DNA of 43,648 nt from an uncultured Phycisphaeraceae bacterium (lineage in GTDB: Bacteria; Planctomycetota; Phycisphaerae; Phycisphaerales; Phycisphaeraceae), in NCBI GenBank assembly GCA_964555075.1, contig CAZKRE010000003.1, forward strand, positions 1 through 43,648, written 5' to 3'. The notes beneath the pieces are model-generated. The model was not told the origin of the DNA, ran no database searches, and saw only the letters and a program-made list of their open reading frames with translations. The position numbers and the translations under genes are program-made. This document shows, piece by piece, positions 19,271 through 39,428 of this stretch; the first letter of the stretch is position 1, and each line of letters starts with the position of its first letter.

Positions 19271-19360
19271 GCCCCCGGCCGGGCTTGCCGCTCCTGCCCC
19301 GCGGGCGGGACGGCACTGCGGGCTAGCCGGGCTCTGAACCCTTGAGATTGGGACAGCGAT

Positions 19361-23550: not shown

Positions 23551-25296
23551 ATGCAGTTGCGCTCAAAAGTCGGCCGCTTGGTGGCGGCGTGGTGCGGGGA
23601 TTCGGGTCGGCCGGAGTTGGCGCCGGTGTCGATGGAGCCGCTCGAGCCGCGGCTGCTGCTGGCCGCCAACCCGGTGATCGACTTCATCCCGAACCAGACG
23701 GTGCTGTCCGGCTCGCCGCTGTACATCCCGCTCCAGGGCAGCGACGCCGATGGCGATGCCATCAGCTGGACGGTCACGAGCAGCAACTGGGGCGTCGTGC
23801 AGACCTACGTGCCGCAGAACAACCGCAGCCTGCGGATCACGATGGGCGGGCGCGGGTCGATGGAGTTCCAGCTCTTCGAGGACAAGGCGTCGCGGGCGAC
23901 GTCGCGGATCATCGAGCTCGCCAACAGCGGCTTCTACGACGGCCTCACGTTTCACCGCGTCATCGATGGCTTCATGATCCAGGGCGGCGACCCAAAAGGC
24001 GACGGCACCGGCGGCTCGCACCTGCCCGACTTCGACGATCAGTTCCACCCCGACCTGCAGCACAACCGCGCGGGCCTGCTGTCGATGGCCAAGAGCGGCG
24101 ACGACACCAACAACAGCCAGTTCTTCATCACCGACGAGTCCTCGAACTACCCGCGGTGGCTGGACTTCAACCACACCATCTTCGGGCTGCAGACGTCCGG
24201 CGAGGCGCTCCGCAACGAGATCAGCGCAAGCCCGGTGGACGACAACGACGTGCCGACGACGCCGCAGGTCATGACCGACGTCAGCGTCTTCACCGACACG
24301 ACCAATGGGGTCGCGATGCTGAAGGTGCCGGCGCACATCACGTCGGGCACGGCCCAGATCACGGTGCGGGCCCGCGACGAGACGGGACGGGTCGCCATCC
24401 GCCGGTTCAACGTGACCGTGCAGCCGGACCCGCACGACAACTCGCCTTACCTCAACTGGATCCGGACCGTCCGCACCGAGCAGAACACGCCCGTCTCGTT
24501 CAAGCTCCACGGGATCGATGTGGACGGCGGAACGATGTACTACGACGCGATCGCGGACGATCCGGGCCAGAACTTCGACGTCACGGTCAACCACGCGACC
24601 GGGCTGGTGACCGTGATCCCCCCGACCGGCTTCACCGGGGAGCTCAACGTGCTTGTAGGCGTCCGGGCAGACCCGACGCCGCAGGATGGGGACCCTTGGG
24701 ACCTGCAAAATGTGAAGGTTCACGTCGTGCCGCCGGTCGCGCCGGACGCCTGGGACGCCGGCCGCGGCGACGACACGGCGTGGTCCGCCCGGTACATCGC
24801 GCCGAACGTCTGGCAGCAGAACCGCACGATCGACGCGCCGACCGACGCCGACTGGGTCCGGTTTACCATCCACGAGCGGTCGCGGATCATCGTGAGGGCG
24901 GTCGGGGTCGGCGGGCCCGACGTGCGCCTGATCATCCGCGGGCCCGACGCAACGAACGTGCTGCCGTCGACCCGGCCGACCACCGCGATGGCCGCAGAGG
25001 GCGCGACGCAGACGGCACTGGTGCGGGCTGGTCTCAAGGCGCTGGATCCCGGGACCTACTGGGTGCGCGTGGATGGGCTGGGGATGGTGGTGCCGAACTA
25101 TTCGCTTCGGGTGGAGCAACTCGTGCTGCCCGCCGCGGCGCCCGTGGTCGACCGCACCAGCGACGCCCGGCTTGCCGCCCTGCTGTGGGACGAGTCCCGT
25201 CGAGCGACCCAGCCTGCGAAGGGCTTGGCGGATGACACCCGCGAGGAGGCGGACGTGCTCGCGGAGACCGAGCCGGTGCTGCCGTTCCTCGCGTGA
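23551..25296 (+). CDS. Secreted multidomain protein: N-terminal LEPLEPRLLLAANP motif, cyclophilin-type peptidyl-prolyl isomerase domain, cadherin-like/Ig-like repeats and a C-terminal PPC-like beta domain.
   Basis: Cyclophilin signature FHRVIDGFMIQGGDP-GDGTGG. Asp-rich cadherin-like repeats (LQGSDADGDAISWTV, LHGIDVDGGTMYYDAI). A strong AGGAGG lies 8 nt before the ATG at 23551. Confidence 0.75.
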   Translation: MQLRSKVGRLVAAWCGDSGRPELAPVSMEPLEPRLLLAANPVIDFIPNQTVLSGSPLYIPLQGSDADGDAISWTVTSSNWGVVQTYVPQNNRSLRITMGGRGSMEFQLFEDKASRATSRIIELANSGFYDGLTFHRVIDGFMIQGGDPKGDGTGGSHLPDFDDQFHPDLQHNRAGLLSMAKSGDDTNNSQFFITDESSNYPRWLDFNHTIFGLQTSGEALRNEISASPVDDNDVPTTPQVMTDVSVFTDTTNGVAMLKVPAHITSGTAQITVRARDETGRVAIRRFNVTVQPDPHDNSPYLNWIRTVRTEQNTPVSFKLHGIDVDGGTMYYDAIADDPGQNFDVTVNHATGLVTVIPPTGFTGELNVLVGVRADPTPQDGDPWDLQNVKVHVVPPVAPDAWDAGRGDDTAWSARYIAPNVWQQNRTIDAPTDADWVRFTIHERSRIIVRAVGVGGPDVRLIIRGPDATNVLPSTRPTTAMAAEGATQTALVRAGLKALDPGTYWVRVDGLGMVVPNYSLRVEQLVLPAAAPVVDRTSDARLAALLWDESRRATQPAKGLADDTREEADVLAETEPVLPFLA

Positions 25297-25386
25297 GGGG
25301 TCGATAACGGCCGGTTCGAGCCGAGCAGTCGAGGCTGGCTTGCCTGTTGGCCGATCTCTGCCAGCAGAGGCCATCGGGAGCTGTAC

Positions 25387-25593
25387 ATGCGACTCGACCG
25401 ACCGATCCAGGAGACCCTGGTGGAGATCTACGGGATGGAGCGGGAGACCTGCCTCGCGGCCCTGCGGTCGATCGAGCGGCCGCGGCTGGACTTCACCGAC
25501 GAGTTTCTCGCCGCGTCCAGCACGGAGCAACTCAAGCACATCCTGGCCGCGGCGGTGCTCCAAGCCCGCAAGGTGTCCGGCCATGCCGCCTGA
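25387..25593 (+). CDS. Small hypothetical protein (68 aa).
   Basis: ORF preceded by GGGAG 6 nt before its ATG, in the gap between the cyclophilin-domain gene and fba. No recognisable family. Confidence 0.3.
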   Translation: MRLDRPIQETLVEIYGMERETCLAALRSIERPRLDFTDEFLAASSTEQLKHILAAAVLQARKVSGHAA

Positions 25594-25713
25594 CGCCCTT
25601 CCTGACCGGGGGTTGCGCCGGCCGGCTGGCGTGATAAGCCGATCCGATCGCCACCTTCGGACTCGCAGGTTTTGATATCATGTCCCGCGACCCGCAAACG
25701 CGGGCCCCGCCCC

Positions 25714-25725
25714 GTGGATATCCAC
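25714..25725. promoter_or_regulatory. Perfect 12-bp palindrome GTGGATATCCAC about 35 nt upstream of the fba start. Candidate operator.
   Basis: Read directly in the sequence. It follows a short lower-GC stretch, ttttgatatcatg. Confidence 0.3.
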
Positions 25726-25760
25726 CTGCCCCAGTCTATTCAACGACGGAGACCCCCGAC

Positions 25761-26783
25761 ATGCTCATGACCACCAAGCCCATGTTCGACCTCGCCTACG
25801 AAGGCGGCTTCGGCATCGGCGCGTTCAACGTCAACAACATGGAGATCACCCAGGGCATCATCGAGGCGTGCGCCGCCGAGAAGAGCCCCTGCATCCTGCA
25901 GATCTCCAAGGGCGCCCGCAAGTACGCGAACATGCGCTTCCTCCGCCACATCATCGCGGCGTGCGTCGAGGAGTATCCCGAGGTCCCGATCGCGATCCAC
26001 CTCGACCACGGCGACACCGTCGACCTCGTCAAGACGTGCATCGCCGACGGGTTCACGAGCGTGATGATCGACGGGTCGCACCACGAGTACGAAGAGAACG
26101 TCCGCTTGACCGCCGAGGCCGTCAAGGTCGCGCACGCGGCGGGCGTGGTCGTTGAGGCGGAGCTGGGCATGCTCGGCGGGATCGAGGAGGACGTCGTCGG
26201 CCTCGACGCCGAGGAATACGAGAAGAACCTCGAGAAGTTCCTCACCGACCCCGAGCAGGCGAAGGACTTCTACGCTCGCACCGGCATCGACAGCCTCGCG
26301 GTCGCCATCGGCACCAGCCACGGCGCCTTCAAGTTCAAGCACGAAGCCAAGCTCGCGTTCAACCGCGTCGAGCAGATCATGAAGACCTGCCCGGGCCTGC
26401 CGCTCGTGATGCACGGGTCGTCGAGCGTCCCGCAGGAGTTCATCGACCTCGTCAACCAGTATGGCGGATCGATGCCCAACGCCAAGGGCGTGCCCGAAGA
26501 TCAGATCGCCATGGCCGTCCGGAAGTACGGCGTGTGCAAGGTCAACATCGACACCGACCTCCGCCTCGCGCTGACCGCGAAGATCCGCGAGGTGTTCGCC
26601 ACCAAGCCCAGCGAGTTCGACCCCCGCAACTACCTCGGCCCCGGCCGCGAGGCGATCGTCGGCATGGTCAAGCGCAAGCTCCACATGCTCAACAGCGCGG
26701 GCAAGGCCGACGAGGTCATCAAGCAGTGGAAGAAGGAGGGCGAGCCGATGCCCGACTACTACCGCGCGACCGCGGCAGCCTGA
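25761..26783 (+). CDS. fba: Fructose-bisphosphate aldolase, class II.
   Basis: Class II FBA zinc-ligand region (HLDHGD, GTSHG) and the overall 340-aa architecture. ATG at 25761 (MLMTTKPMF). The upstream portion of ORF 25680..26783 is leader. Confidence 0.9.
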   Translation: MLMTTKPMFDLAYEGGFGIGAFNVNNMEITQGIIEACAAEKSPCILQISKGARKYANMRFLRHIIAACVEEYPEVPIAIHLDHGDTVDLVKTCIADGFTSVMIDGSHHEYEENVRLTAEAVKVAHAAGVVVEAELGMLGGIEEDVVGLDAEEYEKNLEKFLTDPEQAKDFYARTGIDSLAVAIGTSHGAFKFKHEAKLAFNRVEQIMKTCPGLPLVMHGSSSVPQEFIDLVNQYGGSMPNAKGVPEDQIAMAVRKYGVCKVNIDTDLRLALTAKIREVFATKPSEFDPRNYLGPGREAIVGMVKRKLHMLNSAGKADEVIKQWKKEGEPMPDYYRATAAA

Positions 26784-26810
26784 GCCCTGTCCGATAGACC
26801 GACACCTACC

Positions 26811-26844
26811 GAAGCCCACGCTCCGAGAGCGTGGGCTTCTTTTC
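26811..26844 (+). terminator. Rho-independent terminator after fba: gaagcccacgctc cga gagcgtgggcttc tttt. The stop codon of the convergent giant gene lies inside the T-tract.
   Basis: 13-bp perfect stem, 3-nt loop and TTTT. The same GAAGCCCACGC stem is used at 10111. Confidence 0.75.
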
Positions 26845-29800
26845 ATTCCACGGTTGAAACGCCATCCACCTCACCCGACTGCTCGAGTCGGCGGATCGTG
26901 CGCTCGTACCGCTCCGTGAGGTGTTCCACGGCTCGACGGACCTCGGTGAGCTGGCCGTCCTGCCCGGCTGTCAGCCGCGTCAGCGGCTCGAGCCACGCCT
27001 TCATCAGCTCGAACTGCTCCTTCATCACATAGAGGAAGGTGGCGGGCACTTTGTTGATGACGGTGATCTCCTGCCGGCGCGGCTCGCCGTCGCCGTTGGA
27101 CGTCGGCGTTGCCGCGGCGGGCGGGGTGGCGACGCAGGCCACCGCCTCCGCAATCCGTTCGGCCGCCGCGGTGAAGGCCGCGAGAGACGCGCTGTCGAAC
27201 CGCGCTTCGAGCGGCCGGGTGGCGCGGTCATCCTCCTCCCGCGCGTGGCCGTTGACGTTCGCCGCCTCCGCCGCCGCACGGATCGTGTCGCGGATGTCAC
27301 CCAGGCTCTGATTGAACCCCGACAACTGTGTCAGCACCGCCGCCGTCTTGTCGTCTCCTCCAAGGGACCGCACCTGGTTGTTTCGCTGGAACGTCCGCCG
27401 CATGTCGTCCCACCGCGCCGCCTCGGCCTCCGTCTGGATGCCCATCAGCGCCTTGAACTTCAGCAGGTTCGCCTCCGCGCCCCGCGTGAGCGTCTGTGCG
27501 TCCTGCTCATAGCTCGAAACAATCAGCGTGCGCAGCTCCGCATCGTTCATCACCGCGGCCACCTTCTCAGCTATGCGGTTCATGTTCCGGTACGAGCCCT
27601 GTAACTGGAACGGCGGCTCCGTGCGGTACTGATCCTCCATGCCCGCGGAGCGGATGTACTCCTGGTTGACCTTGAGAACGGTGTCGCGGACGACGAGCAG
27701 CTTGCGGGTGACCTCGACCATCTCGTTGAGTTCCTCGAGGCCGTATTGCCCCTCGAACTCAAGCCCTTCACGGTTGCCGGTTTCGGCGATCTGGACGATG
27801 GCGTAGAGATCCTTTGCGCTGCGGGACGCGAGGCGGTTGAGCGTGGGGTTGCTTGTGAGCGCGTTCTCGAGGTAGCTGAGGCGAAACGCCCGCTCGTGTT
27901 CGCCGAGGTTGTCACCCAGGTTGTAGGTGTCCGCGCGATTGGCGAGCATGTCGGGGATCTGGAACTTGCCGCCGCTCTCGGTGTACGGGTTGCCCGCCAT
28001 GACGACGGCGACCTTGCGGCCGCGGAGGTCGTAGGTGCGGGTGTGACCCTTGTAGACGCCCTCGATTTTGCGCTGCGCGTCGCACAGCGAGATGAACTTC
28101 TGCAGAAACTCAGGGTGTGTGTGCTGGATGTCGTCGACGTACAGCATCACGTTGTCGCCCATCTCGAGCGCGAGGTTGAGCTTCTCGACCTCTTCGCGGG
28201 CGGCGGCGTTGGGTGCCTCCGCGGGGTCCAGCGAGGTGACGCCGTGCCCGATCGCGGGCCCGTTGACCTTCATGAAGATCAGGCCGAGCCGGTTCGCGAC
28301 GTACTCCATCAGCGTGGTCTTGCCGTAGCCGGGCGGCGAGATGACGAGCAGCATCCCCTGCCGATCCGTACGCTTCGACTCCCCCGCCGTGCCGAGCTGC
28401 TTCGCGAGGTTGTCGCCCACGAGCGGGAGGTACACCTCGTCGATCAGCTTGTTGCGGACGAAGCTCGTCAGCACACGCGGCTTGAAGTCGTCCAGCCGCA
28501 TCGAGCGGCGGGCACGCTCAAGAAGATCGTGCTTCAGCCGGGCGTAGGCTTCGAACCGGGGCAAGGCGACCGTCTCGTGATCATGGAGGCGGCGCATGAA
28601 CGCGTTGAAGTTCAGCGTCATTCGGCCGGCTTCGATCCGCGGGTGCGTCCCGGCCAGCCCGTCAAGCTCGCGCTCGACCGACGCCTGAACGATCCGTGCG
28701 ACGTCAACGTGTCCGCGGGTCAGCAGCAGCGCCGCCTCGTCGAGGTACTCCGCCGACCCGGACGCGTCGCTGCCCGCGGCGTCGCGGAACGCCTCCAGCC
28801 AGTCGCGGGCGAGCAGGAACGCCGCAAAAGGCTCGCCGACGCCGCGGACTGAACCTTCGAACGCGCGGCGGTCGCCGGTCTGACCGAGGTGCGCGTCGAA
28901 TGCCTCACGAAGCTGAACCGCCTCCGGGCTGATCGCGAACCCGCCGCCGGTCGTCATCGCCGCGAAGAGGTAGGCGGCGGCGTCATCCAGAGTCGCTGCC
29001 TCGAAGTGTCTGTGCCGCTCGACAAAGGTCGCGAGCATCGCGCGGAGCTCTGCCGTGTACCGCGCCTGCTTGCCGCTGCCGGGGAAGAGACGGGCAACCT
29101 CGGCGAAGCCGGACAACTGCGCCGCGAGCCGGTCTTTCTCCGGCCCTTCCGAGAGTTCCCACGCCAGCGACGCGAGCGTCCGCGCCGCGCTCGGGTGCCG
29201 TAGGAGCCCGATCGTGGCGTCCAGTTCGAGGAGCGCGTGGAGGATGGTCGCCGCGTCCGCGTCATGCACGCCCTTGGTGTACCCCTCGCTGTACCGAGGC
29301 GCCATGTAGCGCTGCACGTGGCCGAGCAGGGCTTCCGGCCTGTCCGCATCGGCGACAGGAACGGCCCGCTCGCGGAACATCCGATACGCCAGCCACTCCG
29401 CGCGGTACACCTCGCGGGTCTCGCTGGCCACCTCCTGGTCCCAAGCGGCCCGCGTCGCCTCGAAGGCGGCGTCGGTGATGGGCTCGAAGAAGTTCGTTCC
29501 CGCCAGATGCAGGTGCATCACGCCGTCGCGGAGGACCGTCGTCAGGTCCACCGCCTGCCGGTTCACCGCGAAGCGGTGTCGGCCGAAGCGGATGATGTTC
29601 TCGCCGTCCTCGAACAGGTCGGCACGGTCCTTGAGCTGGCGGACCGCGTCCTCGCGGATCGTCTTCAGCCGGGTCTGGATGTCATCGACGCGGACGGAGT
29701 CGCCGAAGTCGCCGAGTTCCGCGATGATTCCTCGCGCCTTCTCGATCATGAGGTCCGACGCGAAGTACCCGTCGATCTCGGCGATCGTCGTGAACCCGTC

Positions 29801-32212
29801 AACGCGGCTCTTGACGCCGCCGAGGATACGATCGGCGGCCTGCGCCAAGGCGTTCGTGCGACGGTTCCGCGCCTCGACGAGCCGCAGCTTGCGGTTCTCG
29901 AAGGCGTTGTAGACCTCCTCCCGCTTCTCCGACAACTGCAGCACGAACTCGTCGTGCTCGGCGAACCTGCCTTCGAGTTCCTCGATCTGCACCATCACCC
30001 GCGTGAGCAGGTCCTCCGCTTTCTGCGGCGTGTCCGCGATGTCGAGGTAGCTCACCACGCCCTGATTCAGCAGCTTGAGCTGGCTGTTGAACTCCGCCAC
30101 CCCCTCGGCCTTGCCCAGCTCCCGCGCGCGGTTCTTCAGCCGGGCACGCGCCGCGTTGAGGGTCGAGAACACGGCCCCGATCCCGTCGATGATCTCCGTC
30201 CGTTGCGTGGCGTCGTCGATCCGGAGGTTCCCGACGATCTCGACGAGCATCTCCAGCTCGCGCGAGGCCGTATCAATCTCCGCCCCCAACGCCCTGGCGT
30301 CGAAGCCTTTCTCGACCCCCTCGATCCGCTCGCCGAAGGCCGCGGCGCTCTGGCGGTACGGGTCGAGTGCGTCGGGCTTGAGGAGGTAGTCGACCGTGCG
30401 GCGGCTGATGTCGTCCGCCTGCGCGACGAGATCACGTTCGAGCGCGTCCACCGCCTCGCGAACAACGTACCGCAGCTCGCGCAGGCCGATCACTTCGCCC
30501 CGGAGTTCCCGCAGCCCCGCCAGCGCCCGCACGTAGCCGTGGATGTCGTCGTAGATGCGGGTGGCATTGGCGTTGAGCAGTTCGCCCGCCCGCCGGGTAA
30601 CGTCGGCGACGCGGTCGCGGGTTGTCTTGCGAATCCGCGTGACCTTCTCGAACTCCCCCACCGCCGCCTGCGCTGTGGCTCGGATCTCGCGCAGCGCCTC
30701 CGCGAGGTTCCCGGCCTCCGGCTGGTCGAGCCAGAAGTATGCGTCGAGCACGTTCCCCGCAGACCGCACCAGGTCGAGGTAAACCTCCGCATACGCCTCT
30801 TCCCGCTGCACGAGCTTCAGGACGTCCACACACTCGGCCATTGCGCGGACGATGTCGCGGTTGCCGATCTTGAAGAGCATCGAATCGCTCTTCCGGTCCG
30901 GCACATGGTTAGGGCCGACGTAGGGAGTCTGCCAGATCTGAAGGGCGTGGTGCTTCTGCGGCTCGTCCCCCGGCGGGAGTTTGAAGAAGACCATCGTCCC
31001 GTCGTCGAACAGCGAGAAGCCGTGACAGAGCACCGGCGTCTCCACCCGCTGCTCGATGAGGTTGTACGACAGCAGCGCGTAGTCGCCCCGTTCCCGGTGG
31101 TAGAACACGAACAGCGTGTCCTCTCCGTTCGGACTCGGCAGGCGGCGGTCGAACGCCATCGCGCCCGCTTCGTGCGGGAACACCGTCCGGTCGCCGCTCG
31201 CGAGGTAGTAGCCGTTCGAGAAGATGATGCCGTGATCGTCCGGAAGCAGGACGCAGGCGTCGGCGACCGCGTCAAGCCGGACGACCTCCTTCAGCTTCTC
31301 GTTGAAAACAAAGTGGCGGAACGCTTTCTCCTGGTACGGCCGGACCTTCAGGAGCACGAGGTGCCCCAGCTCCGCGTAGTAGAACTCCGCGTCGTCGAGC
31401 GACTGGTCCGCGTTTTCAACCGGCTCCGAGTAGATGCCGTGCCCACTCGCGGTGTTGTCCTCGACCTTGATGGTCAAGTCGCCCGCGACCGTCTCGACGA
31501 AGACCTTTTCGGCGATCGAAACGTGCGGGTGGTCGCCCAGGCGGTGGTGGTCGCGCGTCGCCCGCTTCCACTCGAACTCGTGTTGCGGGGGGTAGCGGAC
31601 CTCGTGGTCGCTCCGCGCGTCGATGTACTCGAGACTCCGTGGCTTGCTGTCGTCCCCCAAGACAACCCGCCACTTGAACGCCTTGAAGTCGTCCGGCGTC
31701 TTGCCCACGTGGAACTTCATATACAGGTGCGGCCCGCGGGCGTGGAACTTCACGAACCGGGCGCCCTTGTAGTACCGGTAGAGGTCGCGGAAGTCTTTCT
31801 CGAACCGGTCATCGTTCAGCAGGTCGAGCGTTTCGGCATGAAATGTCTGCTCCGCCCGGTCAAAGCGGTAAACGGCGAACACGTCGCCGACGTGCGTCTC
31901 GCTCCGCAGCCCGAACTGCACGTTGTAGCCGAAGAGGAACCGCTCCCCCAGCGCCACCATGTCGCGCGGAACGCAGTTGTGTTCGGTCGTCACCCGCTCG
32001 GTTGCGAGCAGCTTCGTCTCAATCGCGCCGAACACTTCCTTACGCGTGGCGTTCAGCGCTTCCAGGCGGTTGCGGAGCTCGTCGGCCTGGCCCACGAGCC
32101 GGTTGCGGAGGATCTCGTACGTCCCCCGCTCGAGCCGGTCGCCGCTCGCGTCGTCGCGCGCAGTCGCCTGAGGAGCGTTGTCGCCCGAGGTTGTCGTTCC
32201 GTTCTCCGCCAT
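26843..32212 (-). CDS. Giant (1789 aa) soluble protein with one MoxR-like AAA+ ATPase module, at residues about 1290-1430 (nt about 27930-28350). It sits between a beta-rich N-terminal region and long alpha-helical/coiled-coil regions. Function unknown.
   Basis: Walker A SPPGYGKTT (Lys codon at 28319-28321). Walker B VMLYVDDIQH...EFLQKFISL. Sensor/arginine segment VVMAGNPYTESGGKFQIPDMLANRA aligns with the MoxR ATQNP..EGTYPLPEAQLDRF motif. No TM helices. Co-oriented and 70 nt downstream of yqiK. Confidence 0.7.
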   Translation of the reverse strand: MAENGTTTSGDNAPQATARDDASGDRLERGTYEILRNRLVGQADELRNRLEALNATRKEVFGAIETKLLATERVTTEHNCVPRDMVALGERFLFGYNVQFGLRSETHVGDVFAVYRFDRAEQTFHAETLDLLNDDRFEKDFRDLYRYYKGARFVKFHARGPHLYMKFHVGKTPDDFKAFKWRVVLGDDSKPRSLEYIDARSDHEVRYPPQHEFEWKRATRDHHRLGDHPHVSIAEKVFVETVAGDLTIKVEDNTASGHGIYSEPVENADQSLDDAEFYYAELGHLVLLKVRPYQEKAFRHFVFNEKLKEVVRLDAVADACVLLPDDHGIIFSNGYYLASGDRTVFPHEAGAMAFDRRLPSPNGEDTLFVFYHRERGDYALLSYNLIEQRVETPVLCHGFSLFDDGTMVFFKLPPGDEPQKHHALQIWQTPYVGPNHVPDRKSDSMLFKIGNRDIVRAMAECVDVLKLVQREEAYAEVYLDLVRSAGNVLDAYFWLDQPEAGNLAEALREIRATAQAAVGEFEKVTRIRKTTRDRVADVTRRAGELLNANATRIYDDIHGYVRALAGLRELRGEVIGLRELRYVVREAVDALERDLVAQADDISRRTVDYLLKPDALDPYRQSAAAFGERIEGVEKGFDARALGAEIDTASRELEMLVEIVGNLRIDDATQRTEIIDGIGAVFSTLNAARARLKNRARELGKAEGVAEFNSQLKLLNQGVVSYLDIADTPQKAEDLLTRVMVQIEELEGRFAEHDEFVLQLSEKREEVYNAFENRKLRLVEARNRRTNALAQAADRILGGVKSRVDGFTTIAEIDGYFASDLMIEKARGIIAELGDFGDSVRVDDIQTRLKTIREDAVRQLKDRADLFEDGENIIRFGRHRFAVNRQAVDLTTVLRDGVMHLHLAGTNFFEPITDAAFEATRAAWDQEVASETREVYRAEWLAYRMFRERAVPVADADRPEALLGHVQRYMAPRYSEGYTKGVHDADAATILHALLELDATIGLLRHPSAARTLASLAWELSEGPEKDRLAAQLSGFAEVARLFPGSGKQARYTAELRAMLATFVERHRHFEAATLDDAAAYLFAAMTTGGGFAISPEAVQLREAFDAHLGQTGDRRAFEGSVRGVGEPFAAFLLARDWLEAFRDAAGSDASGSAEYLDEAALLLTRGHVDVARIVQASVERELDGLAGTHPRIEAGRMTLNFNAFMRRLHDHETVALPRFEAYARLKHDLLERARRSMRLDDFKPRVLTSFVRNKLIDEVYLPLVGDNLAKQLGTAGESKRTDRQGMLLVISPPGYGKTTLMEYVANRLGLIFMKVNGPAIGHGVTSLDPAEAPNAAAREEVEKLNLALEMGDNVMLYVDDIQHTHPEFLQKFISLCDAQRKIEGVYKGHTRTYDLRGRKVAVVMAGNPYTESGGKFQIPDMLANRADTYNLGDNLGEHERAFRLSYLENALTSNPTLNRLASRSAKDLYAIVQIAETGNREGLEFEGQYGLEELNEMVEVTRKLLVVRDTVLKVNQEYIRSAGMEDQYRTEPPFQLQGSYRNMNRIAEKVAAVMNDAELRTLIVSSYEQDAQTLTRGAEANLLKFKALMGIQTEAEAARWDDMRRTFQRNNQVRSLGGDDKTAAVLTQLSGFNQSLGDIRDTIRAAAEAANVNGHAREEDDRATRPLEARFDSASLAAFTAAAERIAEAVACVATPPAAATPTSNGDGEPRRQEITVINKVPATFLYVMKEQFELMKAWLEPLTRLTAGQDGQLTEVRRAVEHLTERYERTIRRLEQSGEVDGVSTVE

Positions 32213-32282
32213 TACCGGGCTCGCGGGGTGCAGTCAGTGAGTACAGAGCGATAGGTATGGTGCGCGGCCGCGCGCCCGCCGG

Positions 32283-34364
32283 TCAGAGACCGCCCTGCCG
32301 GAGCAGGTCACCCACCGGCTGACCGTCGAGCCCGTTCTGCCGAACCAGACCCAGAAGGCCCTTGAGTTCGCCCCGCAGGCTTTCGGTGTCCGCCACGGTG
32401 ATCATCTTCGCGATGGCGGCGGCGATGGTCAGGTTCTTCACGTCATCTGAAGTCATGTTGAACTTGCCGAGGAAGTGCCCGAGCCGTTCCCGGAAGTCGC
32501 CGCCCTCCCCGCCGTTCCCGTTGACTTCGAAGAACGTGTCACGGACGCGCTGGATCGTGCCCGAGGAGTCGACCAGCCGCTCCACCCGCTTGCCGGCGGT
32601 GACGGCGTCCATGATCTGACGGAAGAACATGCTCTCGCCGCCAACGATGTCGATCTTGGCGGACTTCATCGCTTCGGCAAGCACCTTCGCCTGCTCCGCC
32701 GCGATATCCTTGGCGATGTTGATCTCGGCGAGCTGGATTTGAAGGTCACGGTCGAGACGGAGCTTGAACTCCTCGTGCTCCCGGCCGACCCCGTCGAGCT
32801 TCTTCATCGCCTCGGCCTTCGCCGCGGTGCCCTGGGCCTCTGCGTCGTACCTCAGCCGTAGCGCCTCCGCCTCCGCCGTGCCGCGCTTCGCGATCACGTC
32901 CGCCTCCGCGGCGCCGTACTTCTGCGTGGCGTCTGCCTTCGCCTCCATCACCTCGGCCTCGGCGAGGCCCGCCGCTGCGGCCTCGGCCGCCGTCGCTTCT
33001 GCCAGCAGCTTCTTCCCCGCCGCTTCCTTCTCCGCGGCCGCCCGCTTCGCCTCAGCCTCCACGAGCATCTCGTTCGCACGGTGCCTCGACGCCAGCTCCT
33101 CGGCCTCGGCGGCCTTGACATGCTTCACCATGTCCTGCTCCGCGGCCGCCTGCGCCGCGACCACCTGCACCTTCTTCGCCCGCTCCGCCGTCGCAAACTC
33201 CTGCGTGTCCTTGATCCGCTCCTGCTCCTCGACCACCGCCCGCTCGACCACCACCCGCTCGCGGATTACGTCCTGGATCGACTTCCGCTGCGCCTCGAGC
33301 GCTTTCTCCTTCTCGATCCGCGCCAGCTCCACGACCCGCTCACGCTCCACCGCCTCGAGCGCCTGCTCCCGCTTCACCCGCTCGAGCTCAACCGCGTCCG
33401 CCCGCTCCTTGTTCCGCTGCGCGACGAGGATCGTCCGCGATTTGTTCTCCTCCGCGATCCCCAGTTCCTCGTCCGTCGTGATCTTCGCCCGCTCGCCGCG
33501 GATCCGCTCCTCCTCGGCCACCTGCATCCACTGCGCCTTCTCCCGCGCCCGAACGGTCTGGATCTCCCGCTCCTGCCTCGCCTCCGCCTCGGCCTGCTGC
33601 CGCTCGAGTTCGAGGATCGCTTCCCGCGCCTCGACGTCCTGTTTCTTGATCGTCTTCTCTCGCTCGCGGTTGATGCTGTTGGCGAACATCGCCTCGCGGG
33701 CCGTGAGCTCCGTGATCTTCTTGATGCCCTCCGCATCCAGGATGTTGTTCGGGTCGAGGTTCTCGACGTCCGTCTGCTCGAGGTAGTCGATCGCGGCATC
33801 ATCGAGCACGTAGCCGTTCAGCTCCGTCCCGATGTGGGTGATGATGGCCTCCTTGAACCGGTCCCTTTCCGTGTAGAGCTCGGTGAAGTCGAACTTCTTG
33901 CCGACCGTCTTGAGCGCCTCGCTGAACTTCGCGTCGAACAGCTCCACGAGCTTGAGCTCGTCCGATGCCCGCCCGCACCCGATCGACTGGGCCACCGTCA
34001 GGACGTCCTGGGCCGCGTTGTTCACGCGTACGAAGAACGCCACCTTGATGTCCGCCCGCACGTTGTCCCGGCAGATCAGCCCCTCCGACCCGTGCCGGAA
34101 GATCTCCACCCGCTTGAGGGAGATGTCCATCACCTCCGGCCGGTGCAGGATCGGGACGATCGTCGCGCCGTTGAAGAAGACCTTCATCCCGCCCACGCCC
34201 GTGCGGACGATCGCCGTCCCCGGCTCGACCTTGCGGTAGAACCGGGATACCACAACCAAGGTCCCGGCGACCGCGATGATGAGGATCAGTACCCCGATCC
34301 CCGCGATCCCGCCCACGACCTCCGCCTGCGCCAATAGCATCGAGAAATCACGCACCACCCACAC
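32283..34364 (-). CDS. yqiK: Flotillin-like SPFH/band-7 protein (YqiK family). N-terminal TM anchor, SPFH domain, and an extended Glu/Ala-rich coiled coil.
   Basis: Matches YqiK/flotillin: the TM helix, then AIVRTGVGGMKVFFNGATIVPILH, the SPFH core, and EA-repeat coiled coil. The exact start is ambiguous between GTGs at 34364/34358/34355 and an ATG at 34340. GGAAGGAG overlaps the yqiJ stop. Confidence 0.85.
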   Translation of the reverse strand: MWVVRDFSMLLAQAEVVGGIAGIGVLILIIAVAGTLVVVSRFYRKVEPGTAIVRTGVGGMKVFFNGATIVPILHRPEVMDISLKRVEIFRHGSEGLICRDNVRADIKVAFFVRVNNAAQDVLTVAQSIGCGRASDELKLVELFDAKFSEALKTVGKKFDFTELYTERDRFKEAIITHIGTELNGYVLDDAAIDYLEQTDVENLDPNNILDAEGIKKITELTAREAMFANSINREREKTIKKQDVEAREAILELERQQAEAEARQEREIQTVRAREKAQWMQVAEEERIRGERAKITTDEELGIAEENKSRTILVAQRNKERADAVELERVKREQALEAVERERVVELARIEKEKALEAQRKSIQDVIRERVVVERAVVEEQERIKDTQEFATAERAKKVQVVAAQAAAEQDMVKHVKAAEAEELASRHRANEMLVEAEAKRAAAEKEAAGKKLLAEATAAEAAAAGLAEAEVMEAKADATQKYGAAEADVIAKRGTAEAEALRLRYDAEAQGTAAKAEAMKKLDGVGREHEEFKLRLDRDLQIQLAEINIAKDIAAEQAKVLAEAMKSAKIDIVGGESMFFRQIMDAVTAGKRVERLVDSSGTIQRVRDTFFEVNGNGGEGGDFRERLGHFLGKFNMTSDDVKNLTIAAAIAKMITVADTESLRGELKGLLGLVRQNGLDGQPVGDLLRQGGL

Positions 34365-34373
34365 TCCTTCCCG

Positions 34374-35087
34374 TCAGAACCCGCGGACGTAGTACACGCC
34401 CGCCCGTTCGTCCTGTTCAACGATCACCGCCTCGTCCCCGCGGGCGAGTGCGTCTTCGTGTCTCGTCCGCACGTTCAGCAGCAACGGCGCGCCGCCCGTT
34501 GAGAACTCCGCCTGCCCGGTCGTCCCCGTCACGCGCGAGGAGGTGACGCGGCAGACCTTGCCGATCAGCTGCAGGTCCGCCCGCCGCTCCTCTTCCCGCA
34601 TCGCGCGGAAGAGCCGCTTGAGCGGCCACGTCACCGCCTTCATCACCAGCGTCGCCACGGCGAATGCCGCCACGAGCAGCGCCACCTGTAACAGGGGCGT
34701 CCAGTCCCGCGTCACCGGGTACAGCCCGACGCTGATCGCCCACATCACGAACGCGAGCACCGTCAGCACGACCATCAGCGGCACGTCGCCGAGGTTGAAG
34801 AATCGCAGCACCGCCGTGGAGACACCCACTTCCGCGACCGACGTCTGTGCCCCGGACGCCGCGCCGTCGCCGACCGCGTCGAACTCCGCGCCTCCCCCGG
34901 CCGCGCCGCCGGACCCGGCGTCAAGCCCCGGATCGAGATCGCCGCCACCCACCTCGAGATCCACGTCGAGCGCGTCCGCCGAGATCCCCCCGACCACCAC
35001 GATCAGCCAGTAGACGCCGCACAACCCCAGCAGTACGGTCAGCCAAAGGTTCGTCGGTGCGAAGATGGCTTCGAAGAAAGGGCCCAT
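34374..35087 (-). CDS. yqiJ: NfeD-like/YqiJ-family membrane protein (OB-fold C-terminus), the cognate partner of SPFH proteins.
   Basis: Four TM helices, an acidic linker, and a C-terminal OB-fold segment (VTSSRVTGTTGQAEF...VIVEQDERAGVYYVRGF). It ends 9 nt before yqiK. ATG at 35087 is 5 nt after GGGGAGA. Confidence 0.75.
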   Translation of the reverse strand: MGPFFEAIFAPTNLWLTVLLGLCGVYWLIVVVGGISADALDVDLEVGGGDLDPGLDAGSGGAAGGGAEFDAVGDGAASGAQTSVAEVGVSTAVLRFFNLGDVPLMVVLTVLAFVMWAISVGLYPVTRDWTPLLQVALLVAAFAVATLVMKAVTWPLKRLFRAMREEERRADLQLIGKVCRVTSSRVTGTTGQAEFSTGGAPLLLNVRTRHEDALARGDEAVIVEQDERAGVYYVRGF

Positions 35088-35418
35088 GGGTCTCCCCACC
35101 GCGATGACGACCGCATCCCGGATCGAGGCGCCTCGTGCCTCGCCCCCTGAGACTTGAGTGTGACTATATCAAAGCGGACGTCCCGCTCGTGCGGCCGGCT
35201 CGGAGGTTCGTCCCGCTTCTGCGAGGCGGCGCAACGGGTCGGAGTGGCCGCGGTCCAGATCCCATGGAGGACGCGCGGGTGTGGTAGCCACACGCCGTCG
35301 ACGATCGCCGCTGAGCCATCCGATCCAACCCGCTCGGCGGCTCAATGGATATTGCCATATACTTGTCTTTAGACGCGGCCGCTTTCCTTGCCCGCGTGAC
35401 GCCTTCCCGGAGCACCCG

Positions 35419-36867
35419 ATGACCCAGACGAAACAGATCCGCCCCGCGCCCCGCGTGATTCAGGGAGGCATGGGTGCCGGCGTCTCCAACTGGCGCCTCG
35501 CCCGCCGCGTCGCTGAACTCGGTGGCCTCGGCGTCGTGTCCGCGACCGGGATCGACACCATCCTCGTCCGCGAACTGCAGCAGGGCGACCCCCATGGCCG
35601 GTTGGCCGTCCTCGCGTCCTATCCGGACCGGGCCATCGTTGCGGAACTGTCCGAGCGTTTCTTCGTCGAAGGTGGCATCGCCGATGGCGCGCCGTTCAAA
35701 CTGCTCCCGATCCACGGCTTCAAGCCCTCCGTCCGCTCGCAGCGAATCCTCGCCGCCGCCGCGTACAGCGAGGTCGCCCTCGCGAAGCGGGGCCATGAAG
35801 GACAGGTCGGCATCAACCTGCTCACAAAACTCAAACGCCACTCCCTCGCGAGCATCTACGGCGCTCTGCTCGCGGGTGTCGATGCGGTGCTCATGGGTGC
35901 CGGCATCCCGCTCGAGGAAGCCGCGCAGATCCCCCGGCTGGCGGCGGGCGAGCCCGGACGTCTCCGGCTGGAGGTCGACACCTCCGCCGCGACGGACCCG
36001 ACGGCCGAGTACTTCTACGACTTCGACCCCCGCTGCGTTACCGACCCGCCGCCGGTACTGCAGCGGCCGGCGTTCTACCCCATCATCTCCTCCGACCTGC
36101 TCGCCCGCGTTCTGGCGAAGAAGCTGCCCCGCGAGGGGGTCACCGGCTGGATCATCGAAACCCCCATCGCGGGCGGGCACAACGCCCCGCCGCGTGGGAA
36201 GCAGTACGACGAGCAACAGAACCCCGTGTATGACAGCCGTGACCAGACCAACCTCGATGCGGTCGCTGCGCTCGGCTACCCCTTCTATCTTGCGGGTGGC
36301 TACGCCACCCCGGAGAAGCTGCGCGAGGCCCTCGCAGCCGGCGCGGCGGGGGTCCAGGTCGGCTCGCTCTTCTCGCTCGCCGACGAGTCGGGTTACCCGG
36401 CTGATTACAAGCGGCGGCTCATCGAGGCGATCCACCGCAAAGAGGTCTCCATCCGCACGGATGGCCGGATCTCGCCCACCGGCTTCCCGTTCAAGGTCGT
36501 CGAGAGCAGAGGCGTTTGGCCGCCCGTGCCCAGGCCCGAGGAGCGTCGCCGCATCTGCGACCTCGGCTACCTGCAGACCGCGGTGGTGGACGGAAACGGC
36601 CGCCTCCAAGGCCGGTGCCCTGCGGAGCCGGTGGACACCTATGTCCGCAAAGGGGGCGAGGAGAGTGAGACCGTTCGCCGCGGCTGCCTCTGCAACGGCT
36701 TGATGGCGAACATCGGCGTAGGCCAGCGGCGGTCCTGGGGGGAGGAGCCGCCGCTTTTCACGGCCGGCGACGAGATCCTGCATCTGTCGCTCGGCTCGAT
36801 CGAGACCCCCCACTACGCCGCGGCAGACGTGATGGACTACCTCCAAGCCGCCGAAGCCGCGACCTAG
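35419..36867 (+). CDS. Nitronate monooxygenase (2-nitropropane dioxygenase-like FMN enzyme), long form with a Cys-containing C-terminal extension.
   Basis: GGMGAGVS FMN-binding signature near the N-terminus and the overall NMO TIM-barrel pattern. ATG at 35419 is 7 nt after GGAG. Confidence 0.8.
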   Translation: MTQTKQIRPAPRVIQGGMGAGVSNWRLARRVAELGGLGVVSATGIDTILVRELQQGDPHGRLAVLASYPDRAIVAELSERFFVEGGIADGAPFKLLPIHGFKPSVRSQRILAAAAYSEVALAKRGHEGQVGINLLTKLKRHSLASIYGALLAGVDAVLMGAGIPLEEAAQIPRLAAGEPGRLRLEVDTSAATDPTAEYFYDFDPRCVTDPPPVLQRPAFYPIISSDLLARVLAKKLPREGVTGWIIETPIAGGHNAPPRGKQYDEQQNPVYDSRDQTNLDAVAALGYPFYLAGGYATPEKLREALAAGAAGVQVGSLFSLADESGYPADYKRRLIEAIHRKEVSIRTDGRISPTGFPFKVVESRGVWPPVPRPEERRRICDLGYLQTAVVDGNGRLQGRCPAEPVDTYVRKGGEESETVRRGCLCNGLMANIGVGQRRSWGEEPPLFTAGDEILHLSLGSIETPHYAAADVMDYLQAAEAAT

Positions 36868-37007
36868 GAAGGGATCACGCCGCTTGCAAAGCAGCGACCT
36901 CGGCCGCGCCGGCTCGAGTCTGAGCGACGCCATGAACCGGGCGTGAACCCGCGGCCGCTGGTTGCGCTAATGCCGCGACGTCGTCGCGGGGAGTGTCTGG
37001 CCGGGCT

Positions 37008-39428
37008 CTACGGGTGGACGCGATAGTTGGCCGGCGGCTGCCCCGTGACCAGGTAGCCGACGATGCCGACGCCTGACCACAGCAGGGCCGCCAGCAGTTC
37101 CCCCGCGATCAGCCCCACCATCAGGGGCAGGATGGTCTTGTACGCCCGCCCACCGCCCCAGCGGACGACGGCCAGCTTGATCGCCCAGCCAATCAGGAAA
37201 GAGGCCCCCAGCCGTGCCGACGGCATCGTGCCCCAGATCAGGAAGAGCACGGGGTGGATCGGCCACCACGGCAGTTGCAGGCGTGCGACCGTGCAGATGA
37301 GCAGGAGCGCCGCGCCGGCGCCGATCCAGGCCAGCAGGTCACCCGACAACCGGACCTGGCTCAGCGAAGTCAGCCCGTCGTTGGCGGTCGAGGTCGCGAG
37401 CGTGCCCCGCGCCCGCATCTCCGTGAGGTTCTGCGACAGCTCATTGAAGGGCAGGGACGGCAGCTTCCGCAGCGACCAGTCGTCCACGATGAGCATGCTG
37501 TAGTCGTGCATGATGAGCATCGTCGCCAGCCCCGCCACCACGCCGCCGACCACGACCATCGCGAGCAGCGCCCCCGCCAGGCGCACCGAGGTCGAAGCGG
37601 GCGAGCGTTCCACGATCTGCAGGCCCGTGTTCAGGTACGGCATTAGCGCCGTGCGAGGATCGCCGACGATGATGGTGCAGGCCAGCGCCAAGAGGATGTA
37701 ACTCGTGGGTCCGATCGCGTCGATGCCGAAGACCGCCGTCAGCACCGCCACCGGCATCCACCACGGTTGCACGAAGAAGAGCCCGGTCTCCGCGACGATC
37801 CGGGACAGCACGAGGAACATCGCCAGGACCAGCATCACAAAGATGCCGCCCAGCACCCAGTCCAGCCCGGCGCTCCGCAGCAGCACCGCCGCCGCCACGA
37901 TGCTGAGCACGAGCAGCCGCCCCGCCCAGACGGCGTAGGCCGGGGTGTCCGGGTCCGGCCGGCCCAGCCCCAGCGCCCGCAGTCCCACCCGCGCGTAGAA
38001 GTGCCGGCCGAAGTAAACGATCAGCAGCGTCATCGCGGCGTACGCGCCGAACCGCATGAGGTTGACGGGGCTCGTGCCCAGGTAGTCGATCTGCACCGGG
38101 ACCCCCCGCGAGATCAACACGGTGGCGAACGCCATGTAGACGAAGTAGGCGATCCCCACCGAGAAGGAGATGTTCGCGTTCAGGAAGAAGGCAAACCCGA
38201 TCACGCTCAGGTAGAGCCTCGGGAAGAAGACCTCGCTGCTGTTGTGCACGCTGGCGGCGGTGGGGAATAACACCCGCAGCGGCAGGAAGTCCAGGCGCGT
38301 GGAGATCTTCATCGCTTCCAGCGCCGGGAACCACGTCCCCAACCCGTTGATCAGGTGGAGGCCGCCCGCCAGCGCCAGCCCGAGCCAGAACAGGTTATTG
38401 AACGCGATGTCGGGCAGCCACCGGTTCTTCCGGTGCTGACCCAACTCCGTCACGAACTGCGCCAGCGGGTAGATGAGCAGCTCCCGCTTCGACCACTGCG
38501 GATGCACGATCAGCGCCAGGCAGAGCGACGCCACGCTCAGCGCCATGCCCAGCCCCACCCACAGCACCAGCGTCGGTCGCCACACCGACCAGTCAATCTG
38601 CTTCCACGTCGGCCCGCGCGCCGGGTCCACGCCCTGCATCAGCACCTCGGACGCCTCCCGCGCCGCCGCGCTCCCCGCGATCAGCGCCCCCCGCCCCTCC
38701 GGGGCCGGCAGGATCGCCCCGTCGAAGCCCGCAACCAGCAGGCGCCGATTCAGCGCTTCCCTCTCCTCGGCACTCGCCGTCCCCGCCGCGCGACGCTTGA
38801 GCAGCCGCGTCTCCTCCGCGGACAGTTCCAGCGTCGTCGACGGCGGCGCCTCCAGCGACGCCTCTCGGATGACCCGGTTGAGCACCCGGACCAGCGCATC
38901 CGATTCCGCCGCGTCGCCCGCCCTGTTGAGGATCGTTCGCTGTTCCGGCTCTTGCGCTGAGCGCCAGACCTGCGCCGCGATCGAGTCCCCGCCCGCCTCG
39001 CCCTCCGAGATGAGCCGGTCGACGATGGCGTTCGGGTCCCGCAGGTGGCCGTGCGCCAGTTCTGCCGTCACGCCCGGGACGTAGGTCATCACCCCGGTCG
39101 CCCGCCACGCCGGCTCGATCTGCGACCACCGGTCGGGTGACGCGACGTTGGGCACGAACCCCCGGTAGAAGCCAAAACTGGGCCACCCGCACGCCGCCAG
39201 GGAGATCGCGGCGATCACCGCCACCTCGCCGGAGCCCAACGACGTCCGGGCGACCAGCCGCAACAGCGGGTTGAGCACCAGCAGGAGCGCCACGATCGTG
39301 CCGAACACGACGATCGGCAGGTGGTTCCCGACGAACCAACTCCCCTTCATCACCGCGTCGTTGAACAGCGTAAAGGCGGAGATCAACAGGCCCAGGCCCA
39401 GCCCGATGGAGACGGCACGCAAGCTCAT
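37008..39428 (-). CDS. Large polytopic membrane protein (806 aa, at least 14 predicted TM helices in two blocks separated by a soluble region of about 170 aa). Unknown function.
   Basis: Hydrophobicity pattern of the translation. GGAGA lies 9 nt before the ATG at 39428. No family recognised. Confidence 0.55.
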   Translation of the reverse strand: MSLRAVSIGLGLGLLISAFTLFNDAVMKGSWFVGNHLPIVVFGTIVALLLVLNPLLRLVARTSLGSGEVAVIAAISLAACGWPSFGFYRGFVPNVASPDRWSQIEPAWRATGVMTYVPGVTAELAHGHLRDPNAIVDRLISEGEAGGDSIAAQVWRSAQEPEQRTILNRAGDAAESDALVRVLNRVIREASLEAPPSTTLELSAEETRLLKRRAAGTASAEEREALNRRLLVAGFDGAILPAPEGRGALIAGSAAAREASEVLMQGVDPARGPTWKQIDWSVWRPTLVLWVGLGMALSVASLCLALIVHPQWSKRELLIYPLAQFVTELGQHRKNRWLPDIAFNNLFWLGLALAGGLHLINGLGTWFPALEAMKISTRLDFLPLRVLFPTAASVHNSSEVFFPRLYLSVIGFAFFLNANISFSVGIAYFVYMAFATVLISRGVPVQIDYLGTSPVNLMRFGAYAAMTLLIVYFGRHFYARVGLRALGLGRPDPDTPAYAVWAGRLLVLSIVAAAVLLRSAGLDWVLGGIFVMLVLAMFLVLSRIVAETGLFFVQPWWMPVAVLTAVFGIDAIGPTSYILLALACTIIVGDPRTALMPYLNTGLQIVERSPASTSVRLAGALLAMVVVGGVVAGLATMLIMHDYSMLIVDDWSLRKLPSLPFNELSQNLTEMRARGTLATSTANDGLTSLSQVRLSGDLLAWIGAGAALLLICTVARLQLPWWPIHPVLFLIWGTMPSARLGASFLIGWAIKLAVVRWGGGRAYKTILPLMVGLIAGELLAALLWSGVGIVGYLVTGQPPANYRVHP

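Follow-up and report, generated by a model that had tools for sequence, protein, structure and literature searches.

A conserved YqiJ-flotillin-giant ATPase locus in a Phycisphaeraceae genome as a candidate three-gene envelope module

The subject of this analysis is a 43,648-nt stretch of DNA from an uncultured Phycisphaeraceae bacterium (Planctomycetota; GenBank assembly GCA_964555075.1, contig CAZKRE010000003.1), hereafter the window, whose minus strand carries, in immediate succession, genes for a YqiJ-like membrane protein, a YqiK-type flotillin and a soluble AAA+ ATPase of 1789 amino acids (aa). This trio is a planctomycete-type member of a system already predicted from comparative genomics, and its ATPase gene is found with a flotillin gene in genome after genome, across at least nine phyla. 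The giant ATPase very likely forms a functional module with the flotillin. We further consider it probable that the locus is a self-contained envelope module of three genes, an "abbreviated" form of the published operon, in which the giant ATPase remodels flotillin/YqiJ assemblies or their clients; the specific remodelling mechanism outlined below is offered tentatively. An earlier interpretation made from the letters of the window and its open reading frames (ORFs) alone, the sequence-only reading, had proposed a flotillin-associated ATPase system here and is partly supported: it was right in substance, and overstated both the novelty of the system and its possible role in defence. The unit and its borders are as follows (GC3, G+C content at third codon positions).

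34374..35087, minus strand: YqiJ/NfeD-type inner-membrane protein, 237 aa from an ATG, identical to the gene call on record; GC3 0.89
32283..34364, minus strand: YqiK-type flotillin, 693 aa with a GTG start (685 aa if translation begins at the ATG at 34340)
32213..32282, minus strand: 70-nt spacer from the flotillin stop to the ATG of the giant gene; no terminator-like or sigma-70-like site found in it
26843..32212, minus strand: giant soluble ATPase, 1789 aa; Pfam DUF3686, DUF7902 and AAA; NCBI name "DNA repair ATPase"
26811..26839, no strand assigned: likely shared terminator hairpin of the operon and the convergent aldolase gene (terminator scan); palindromic and G+C-rich, with a 13-bp stem
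35100..35280, no strand assigned: presumed operon promoter region, the divergent intergenic region 5' of the YqiJ-like gene (by position only)

The linkage of the three genes was surveyed in 80 loci fetched around relatives of the giant gene, of which 65 were informative in that they extended at least 2.6 kb upstream of it. A full-length flotillin ortholog lies upstream on the same strand in 59 of these 65 loci (91%), representing at least nine phyla, and a YqiJ-like gene precedes as well in 51 of the 60 loci with at least 4 kb of upstream sequence. By phylum, flotillin linkage was found in 24 of 25 loci of Planctomycetota, 22 of 26 of Bacteroidota, all four of Verrucomicrobiota and two of three of Desulfobacterota, with single linked loci in Kiritimatiellota, Hydrogenedentota, Calditrichota, Omnitrophota and Fibrobacterota. 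The same gene order occurs in annotated records of the Pseudomonas fluorescens plasmid pQBR103 (Gammaproteobacteria), Streptomyces (Actinomycetota), Deinococcus (Deinococcota) and Hymenobacter, and the plasmid collection adds three phyla to the nine in which order and orientation are kept. Across the 80 loci no further gene is conserved around the trio, upstream or downstream, and the closest relative of the window's giant protein (71% identity) retains the trio between entirely different flanks; the three genes thus behave as one unit. The sequence-only reading had assigned the giant ATPase to the NfeD/flotillin pair and would have given this up had homologs never been syntenic with such genes in other genomes, and the survey returned the opposite picture.

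The spacer between the flotillin and giant genes has a median of about 130–200 nt in the orthologous loci and reaches 0.6–3 kb where genes are inserted in Bacteroidota. Such insertions lie at L051:4886-7947, L039:6486-7956, L052:6471-7878, L076:6200-7980, L078:6800-7953 and L048:6504-7992 (locus handle and positions within the locus), and their genes are lineage-specific, including an ABC ATPase with a multi-transmembrane protein, small lipoproteins and, in L048, an AbiEii-type nucleotidyltransferase. We considered these genes as extra components of the system and rejected them as heterogeneous and non-conserved. In the insertion-bearing genomes the ATPase gene may have a promoter of its own.

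Where the sequence-only reading knew of no described machine of this architecture, the operon had in fact been reported by comparative genomics (Ravi et al., mSystems 2024, 9:e00847-23; PMC11237479; preprint 2020) as a CesT/Tir-PspA pair with three further genes. The same paper mentions "abbreviated operons" that lack PspA and are proposed to work with PspA encoded elsewhere, and its supplementary table gives for Dokdonia donghaensis (ANH61663.1) a divergent cHTH+protease gene, then CesT_Tir, PspA, YqiJ/YuaF, Band-7+CC+flotillin and beta-propeller+CC+AAA-ATPase (HTH, helix-turn-helix; CC, coiled coil). In our survey, PspA_IM30 (E 4e-41) is encoded directly upstream of YqiJ on the same strand in 14 Bacteroidota loci, 13 of which have CesT_Tir_1 (E 4e-54) in front of PspA; in a 15th Bacteroidota locus PspA lies downstream on the opposite strand, and Hymenobacter DG25B has CesT/Tir-PspA in the same operon. 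A divergent gene for an HTH_3 + Peptidase_S24 repressor, of the LexA/CI-like, self-cleaving type, is present in L018 (1932-2729, minus strand) and L084 (2610-3395) and at the same position in the Bacteroidota loci L026, L034, L049, L051, L053, L063, L066, L068, L070, L072, L073 and L078, which suggests stress-inducible control of the operon. Since the Bacteroidota orthologs reproduce the full published operon, our giant protein is the family meant by Ravi et al., and since neither PspA nor CesT was found among the scanned genes of the window, the window carries the abbreviated form.

Compared with the published operon, the window holds the same three families in the same order, with a giant protein likewise built of coiled coil, beta-propeller and AAA+ module, and differs in lacking the CesT/Tir-PspA pair and a phospholipase D gene. 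A longer arrangement is found on pQBR103 (a plasmid of P. fluorescens SBW25; locus L081, record positions 84437-97641), where ten co-oriented genes follow one another in the order YjfI, PspA, rhomboid, DUF2491, DUF350, DUF1190, glutathionylspermidine synthase, YqiJ-like, SPFH and "DNA repair ATPase", thereby merging two operon classes that Ravi et al. list separately, the polyamine-type PspA operon among them. A phospholipase D gene lies about 8.6 kb downstream of this cluster. The paper neither assigns the ATPase to a structural class nor reports linkage counts or experiments; added here are a MoxR-class fold, the lack of a VWA partner, the 91% linkage, a conservation map and the view that the database name is probably wrong. 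Our literature searches, including those by DUF3686 and PF12458, found no experimental work on the giant ATPase.

At the nucleotide level, the window has a G+C content of about 68% and therefore holds long ORFs on both strands, so GC3 was used to tell real genes from shadow ORFs. The minus-strand frames 34374-35099, 32283-34364 and 26843-32212 have GC3 values of 0.89-0.92 and are real. Three other minus-strand ORFs (25740-26846, 23563-25584 and 35164-36933) were considered as extra operon members and rejected, their GC3 marking them as shadows of plus-strand genes, and the unit thus consists of exactly three genes. The plus-strand genes in question are a cyclophilin gene and the two that border the unit, a convergent one for class II fructose-bisphosphate aldolase (25680-26783) and a divergent one for an NMO-like oxidoreductase (35281-36867). 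The YqiJ-like ORF can be extended to a GTG at 35099, which would give 241 aa (34374-35099, minus strand). ORF coordinates confirm what had been noted at the outset, namely that yqiJ and yqiK are 9 nt apart, that yqiK and the giant gene are 70 nt apart and that all three are co-oriented on the minus strand; likewise, the terminator scan finds no terminator in either gap. The sole strong terminator-like site of the unit is the hairpin at 26811-26839, a perfect palindrome (GAAGCCCACGCTC-CGA-GAGCGTGGGCTTC) located 4 nt beyond the stop of the giant gene (26843), with the aldolase gene ending at 26783, and it probably acts as a bidirectional terminator. No sigma-70 consensus was found in 35100-35280 under scan rules that do not cover the promoters of this lineage.

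Both proteins encoded upstream of the ATPase are membrane-anchored, and their yqiJ and yqiK labels, first given without database searches, are justified at the homology level. The YqiJ-like protein has three hydrophobic segments by hydropathy and consists of a first transmembrane segment (TM1), an acidic, Asp-rich loop, TM2-TM3 and a C-terminal OB-like beta domain. The window copy scores below every Pfam threshold; among 34 YqiJ-like orthologs, 19 match YqiJ_N (PF21001) and two match NfeD (PF01957). Profile comparison of the orthologs with E. coli YqiJ by hhalign gave a probability of 96.8% (E 2e-10), and the C-terminal beta region, the part modelled by the rarely matched PF01957, aligns with that of the E. 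coli protein. The TM1-TM2 loop (aa ~40-95) is predicted to be cytoplasmic and consists of Asp-rich repeats (DxDxD...) of variable length, which could bind cations or polyamines, a possibility of interest given the polyamine genes that extend the operon on pQBR103.

In the flotillin, a single TM segment (aa 8-44) precedes the SPFH domain; next come a long coiled coil rich in Ala and Glu (21% and 18% over residues 231-560) and a C-terminal region that is conserved. Its alignment with E. coli YqiK spans 461 aa, the coiled coils included, at 31% identity (E 5e-45), and orthologs at the 59 linked loci are 48-65% identical. Full-length flotillins of this type have no Pfam match (0 of 34). Scanned alone, the N-terminal 255 aa match Band_7 (PF01145, E 5e-9), and for aa 256-693 neither Flot (PF15975) nor any other Pfam model gives a match at E up to 1. 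At full length the match may be masked by composition correction for the coiled coil, and its loss may in turn explain why several public records of this flotillin are labelled "hypothetical protein"; a PDB sequence search with the flotillin returned nothing useful. Because basic residues follow both the flotillin anchor (SRFYRK) and TM3 of YqiJ (KRLFRAMREEERR), the SPFH domain, the coiled coil and the OB-like domain are all predicted to be cytoplasmic under the positive-inside rule.

Two AlphaFold2 models predicted from 99-sequence alignments (mean predicted local distance difference test score, pLDDT, of 87.4 and 83.5) together divide the giant protein into six parts.

32030..32155, minus strand: N-terminal long helix, aa 20-61 (AlphaFold2 model mc1c027ae0f03, pLDDT 87.4)
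30929..32014, minus strand: beta-propeller, aa 67-428, core of DUF3686 (all-beta in the AlphaFold2 model; Foldseek)
29615..30880, minus strand: stalk of long helices, aa 445-866, including DUF7902 at aa 614-698 (AlphaFold2, helices of up to 58 residues)
28715..29404, minus strand: compact all-alpha domain before the ATPase, aa 937-1166 (AlphaFold2 model mf82cd69b0525, pLDDT >90; no Pfam match)
27263..28375, minus strand: MoxR-class AAA+ module with lid, aa ~1280-1650 (AlphaFold2 fold and motifs)
26846..27262, minus strand: variable C-terminal tail, aa 1651-1789, largely low-confidence or disordered, with two terminal helices (pLDDT <50 over long stretches)

By sequence, Pfam assigns DUF3686 ("ATPase involved in DNA repair") to aa 45-493 (E 6e-193) and DUF7902 to aa 614-698 (E 2e-27), with weak AAA/AAA_22 matches around aa 1283-1380, and a PDB sequence search matched the Walker A region only. 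Structurally, aa 67-428 resemble WD40-type and other propellers in Foldseek (the prolyl oligopeptidase propeller, the clathrin terminal domain and Vps11; E 1e-4 to 1e-7). A likeness of propeller plus helical region to clathrin/coatomer-type coats, also seen in Foldseek, was not taken up, given low TM-scores and helices of up to 58 residues. The AAA+ module bears the Walker A motif SPPGYGKTT (aa 1292-1300), a Walker B of the form MLYVDD (aa 1356-1361; window 28130-28147), that is hhhhDD instead of DE, a beta-hairpin before sensor 1, the sensor-1 residue N1408, R1426 and a lid with GSYRNMNR; Walker A, Walker B, Asn1408 and Arg1426 are invariant among the aligned homologs. The module had been called MoxR-like, which stands by fold, the nearest structures being CbbQ and NorQ of the MoxR class (RuvB is also among the Foldseek matches), and does not stand by sequence models, since AAA_5 reaches 18.9 bits against a curated cut-off of 22 and AAA_3 gives no match; a precomputed PF07728 match is carried by many homologs. 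The expected absence of a TM segment (highest 19-residue hydropathy, 1.37) and of a VWA/MIDAS domain was borne out, the latter in the giant protein, in the scanned genes of the window and as a conserved neighbour in the 80 related loci.

The family is large and slow-evolving. The protein database contains at least 5864 homologs of the giant protein (E <1e-5), and at least 540 species-representative genomes encode relatives; its N-terminal domain is matched by only 768 clusters at 50% identity, and the length of full-length members is nearly always 1600-1930 aa. The protein is about 50% identical across phyla with a single fixed architecture, and the closest homologs of the window copy are from Phycisphaeraceae and other Planctomycetota, which fits the planctomycete origin of the window. 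In cross-phylum majority identity the AAA+ core reaches about 86%, the propeller 0.55-0.76 and aa 650-900 about 0.7; the all-alpha domain (aa 937-1166) is the least conserved structured part at 0.38-0.62, and the C-terminal tail falls to 0.11-0.22, with Bacteroidota orthologs alignable only to about aa 1645. Three cluster representatives (P0246, P0262 and P0123) join the C-terminus of a flotillin, or an NfeD-type ClpP-like protease, to the N-terminus of the giant protein. These were not used as Rosetta-stone evidence on account of out-of-frame-looking stretches, and are most likely read-through or frameshifted metagenome gene calls rather than true fusions.

Functionally, the combination of a soluble ATPase with two membrane-anchored partners (by hydropathy) invites a mechanistic proposal, which takes as given the gene order, the conserved linkage, the domain anatomy, the fold class of the ATPase, its intact catalytic motifs and the lack of a VWA partner. 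We posit that YqiJ and the YqiK-type flotillin would together form an SPFH scaffold at the inner membrane, on its cytoplasmic side, with the 1789-aa protein as the ATP-driven component of the module. As remodelling machines, MoxR ATPases depend on an adaptor to find their targets, and on this ground the fused N-terminal helix, propeller and stalk may be regarded as a replacement for the VWA adaptor, probably docking onto the flotillin/YqiJ assembly. ATP hydrolysis could then open, disassemble or load the scaffold or its clients (at loci that have it, PspA is a candidate client), and this remodelling might serve membrane maintenance or an envelope stress response. What we infer in this scheme is that the proteins touch, what the substrate is, in which direction remodelling runs and what triggers it physiologically. 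Of the roles that the sequence-only reading had offered, membrane remodelling or stress is the one best supported by context, since CesT/Tir-PspA genes share the operon in 14 Bacteroidota loci (CesT/Tir in 13) and on pQBR103. Control of PspA-like, ESCRT-III-type polymers is the task of Vps4 in archaea and eukaryotes, and a more ambitious version of our proposal, possible though doubtful, would make the giant protein the missing ATP-driven remodeller of membrane scaffolds in bacteria, whose MoxR module with its built-in propeller adaptor opens or disassembles flotillin/YqiJ assemblies and also controls PspA polymers where these are present.

Several observations weigh against a remodelling ATPase bound to its flotillin. 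The Walker B motif ends in DD rather than DE, which may reflect slow or regulated hydrolysis, and, as read from the sequence, the loop after strand beta-2 has no aromatic residue, so that classical polypeptide threading is not implied. Six of the 65 informative loci have the giant gene and no flotillin within 8 kb, and in many Bacteroidota 0.6-3 kb of unrelated genes separate the two, from which it follows that strict co-transcription is not universal. Conversely, E. coli and many other bacteria carry yqiJK without the giant gene, and the flotillin thus does not need the giant protein.

Among the alternatives, we judge it unlikely that the ATPase acts on PspA as the bacterial counterpart of Vps4, its AAA+ ring assembling or disassembling PspA polymers and flotillin and YqiJ serving as a platform only. 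The same-operon PspA genes of the 14 Bacteroidota loci (13 with CesT/Tir), Hymenobacter DG25B and pQBR103 point this way, as does the suggestion that abbreviated operons act with PspA encoded elsewhere (Ravi et al., PMC11237479), and the position is vacant insofar as, according to a 2025 review, an ATPase of the Vps4 type "appears absent in bacteria". However, PspA is part of the operon at only 14 of the 59 linked loci and at none in Planctomycetota.

A much less probable alternative is an anti-phage or conflict system, in which a membrane sensor/effector pair and a large NTPase would trigger abortive infection. The locus does combine a large multidomain ATPase with membrane proteins, some copies of it are on megaplasmids, an AbiEii-type gene is inserted within locus L048, and a CI/LexA-like HTH-S24 repressor adjoins the Bacteroidota operons. 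Against these points, PADLOC (PADLOC-DB 2.0) run on the three proteins gave nothing significant, its one match being to IetA over the Walker A region alone (E 0.005); none of 50,697 phage records and 13 of 72,556 plasmid records were matched, the latter mostly chromids or mislabelled chromosomes; and no effector domain was detected, whether of the nuclease, protease, TIR, pore-forming or any other kind. Moreover, about 50% identity across phyla in a fixed architecture is typical of housekeeping rather than of fast-evolving defence, and the flanks in the window and in L086 are ordinary metabolic genes. The phage-defence option of the sequence-only reading therefore finds no support in PADLOC, in the phage records, in the rarity on plasmids or in the strong conservation.

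Equally hard to sustain, and if anything slightly more so, is the function by which databases name the giant protein, a DNA repair ATPase to which the adjacent flotillin would be irrelevant. The Pfam description of DUF3686 and the NCBI product name speak for it, RuvB is among the Foldseek matches, and the LexA-family regulator next to the Bacteroidota operons is the sole hint besides names and RuvB. On the other side, neither an NCBIfam model match nor a DNA-related domain nor a supporting paper was found, the conserved neighbours of the giant gene are membrane proteins, and we found no experiment behind the name "DNA repair ATPase". Accidental or merely inherited adjacency without functional coupling, for which one could cite the six loci without a nearby flotillin and the insertions that split the genes in some Bacteroidota, is effectively refuted and ruled out by the synteny survey, as at least nine phyla, and three more in the plasmid collection, retain the order and orientation amid flanking genes that all differ, and a specific gene as immediate upstream neighbour by chance, observed at 59 of 65 loci, would be very unlikely given the size of a gene complement.

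The remaining genes of the window belong to ordinary metabolism and envelope biogenesis (PolA, a Mur ligase, UDP-glucose dehydrogenase and an exosortase, among others), and Rfam and tRNA scans found no RNA genes in it. An exosortase (EpsH) fused to DUF3485 (17645-19270) is followed by a 1361-aa protein made up almost entirely of TPR repeats (19361-23446), and the region 17645-23446 looks like a PEP-CTERM/exosortase sorting locus unrelated to the trio. Further along are a cyclophilin fused to bacterial Ig-like domains, with a weak "Planctomycete extracellular" N-terminal motif (23551-25296), and an 806-aa protein with DUF6785 and DUF6784 (37008-39428).

A three-gene envelope module of this kind would matter for several reasons. 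The function of bacterial flotillins is still debated, and we know of no energy-consuming partner that has been tied to them experimentally. The module occurs in at least a dozen phyla with an unusually well-conserved ATPase sequence, and offers a direct handle, in that a Walker-A mutant of one gene should freeze any cycle of the flotillin scaffold. The module is also relevant to the question of whether PspA/ESCRT-III systems of bacteria are regulated by any ATPase. For annotation, the name "DNA repair ATPase" appears unsupported and is spreading to thousands of proteins, and flotillins of this type are missed by Pfam at full length and often keep the label "hypothetical protein".

Among known systems, the Vps4/ESCRT-III pair shares with the extended operons a contextual link between an AAA+ ATPase and a protein of the ESCRT-III superfamily (PspA), and differs in that Vps4 belongs to another AAA+ clade, that the giant protein has no MIT domain and that PspA is absent from most loci, the window included. 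MoxR ATPases are standalone proteins of about 250-500 aa that act via a separate VWA/MIDAS protein, as in CbbQ-CbbO, NorQ-NorD and RavA-ViaA. Here, in contrast, the AAA+ module is the C-terminal fifth of a protein of some 1800 aa that brings its own propeller and stalk, no VWA gene is near the giant gene, and Walker B reads DD. E. coli yqiJ-yqiK and B. subtilis yuaF-floT, operons of an NfeD-type protein and a flotillin, are homologous to the first two genes and match them in order and orientation; E. coli K-12, however, has no ATPase gene after yqiK, and the window flotillin is about 130 aa longer than E. coli YqiK, with a C-terminal part of about 210 aa that does not align. NfeD OB domains bind SPFH partners, and SPFH scaffolds have repeatedly been paired with AAA+ machines, as in HflK/C-FtsH and in prohibitin with the m-AAA protease. 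FtsH is a membrane protein of the classical AAA clade with a protease domain, whereas the giant protein is soluble and MoxR-class, with neither a TM segment by hydropathy nor a peptidase (M41) domain in Pfam. What the module has in common with HflK/C-FtsH and prohibitin/m-AAA, as an analogy and not as membership, is an SPFH-family scaffold paired with an AAA+ ATPase at the membrane.

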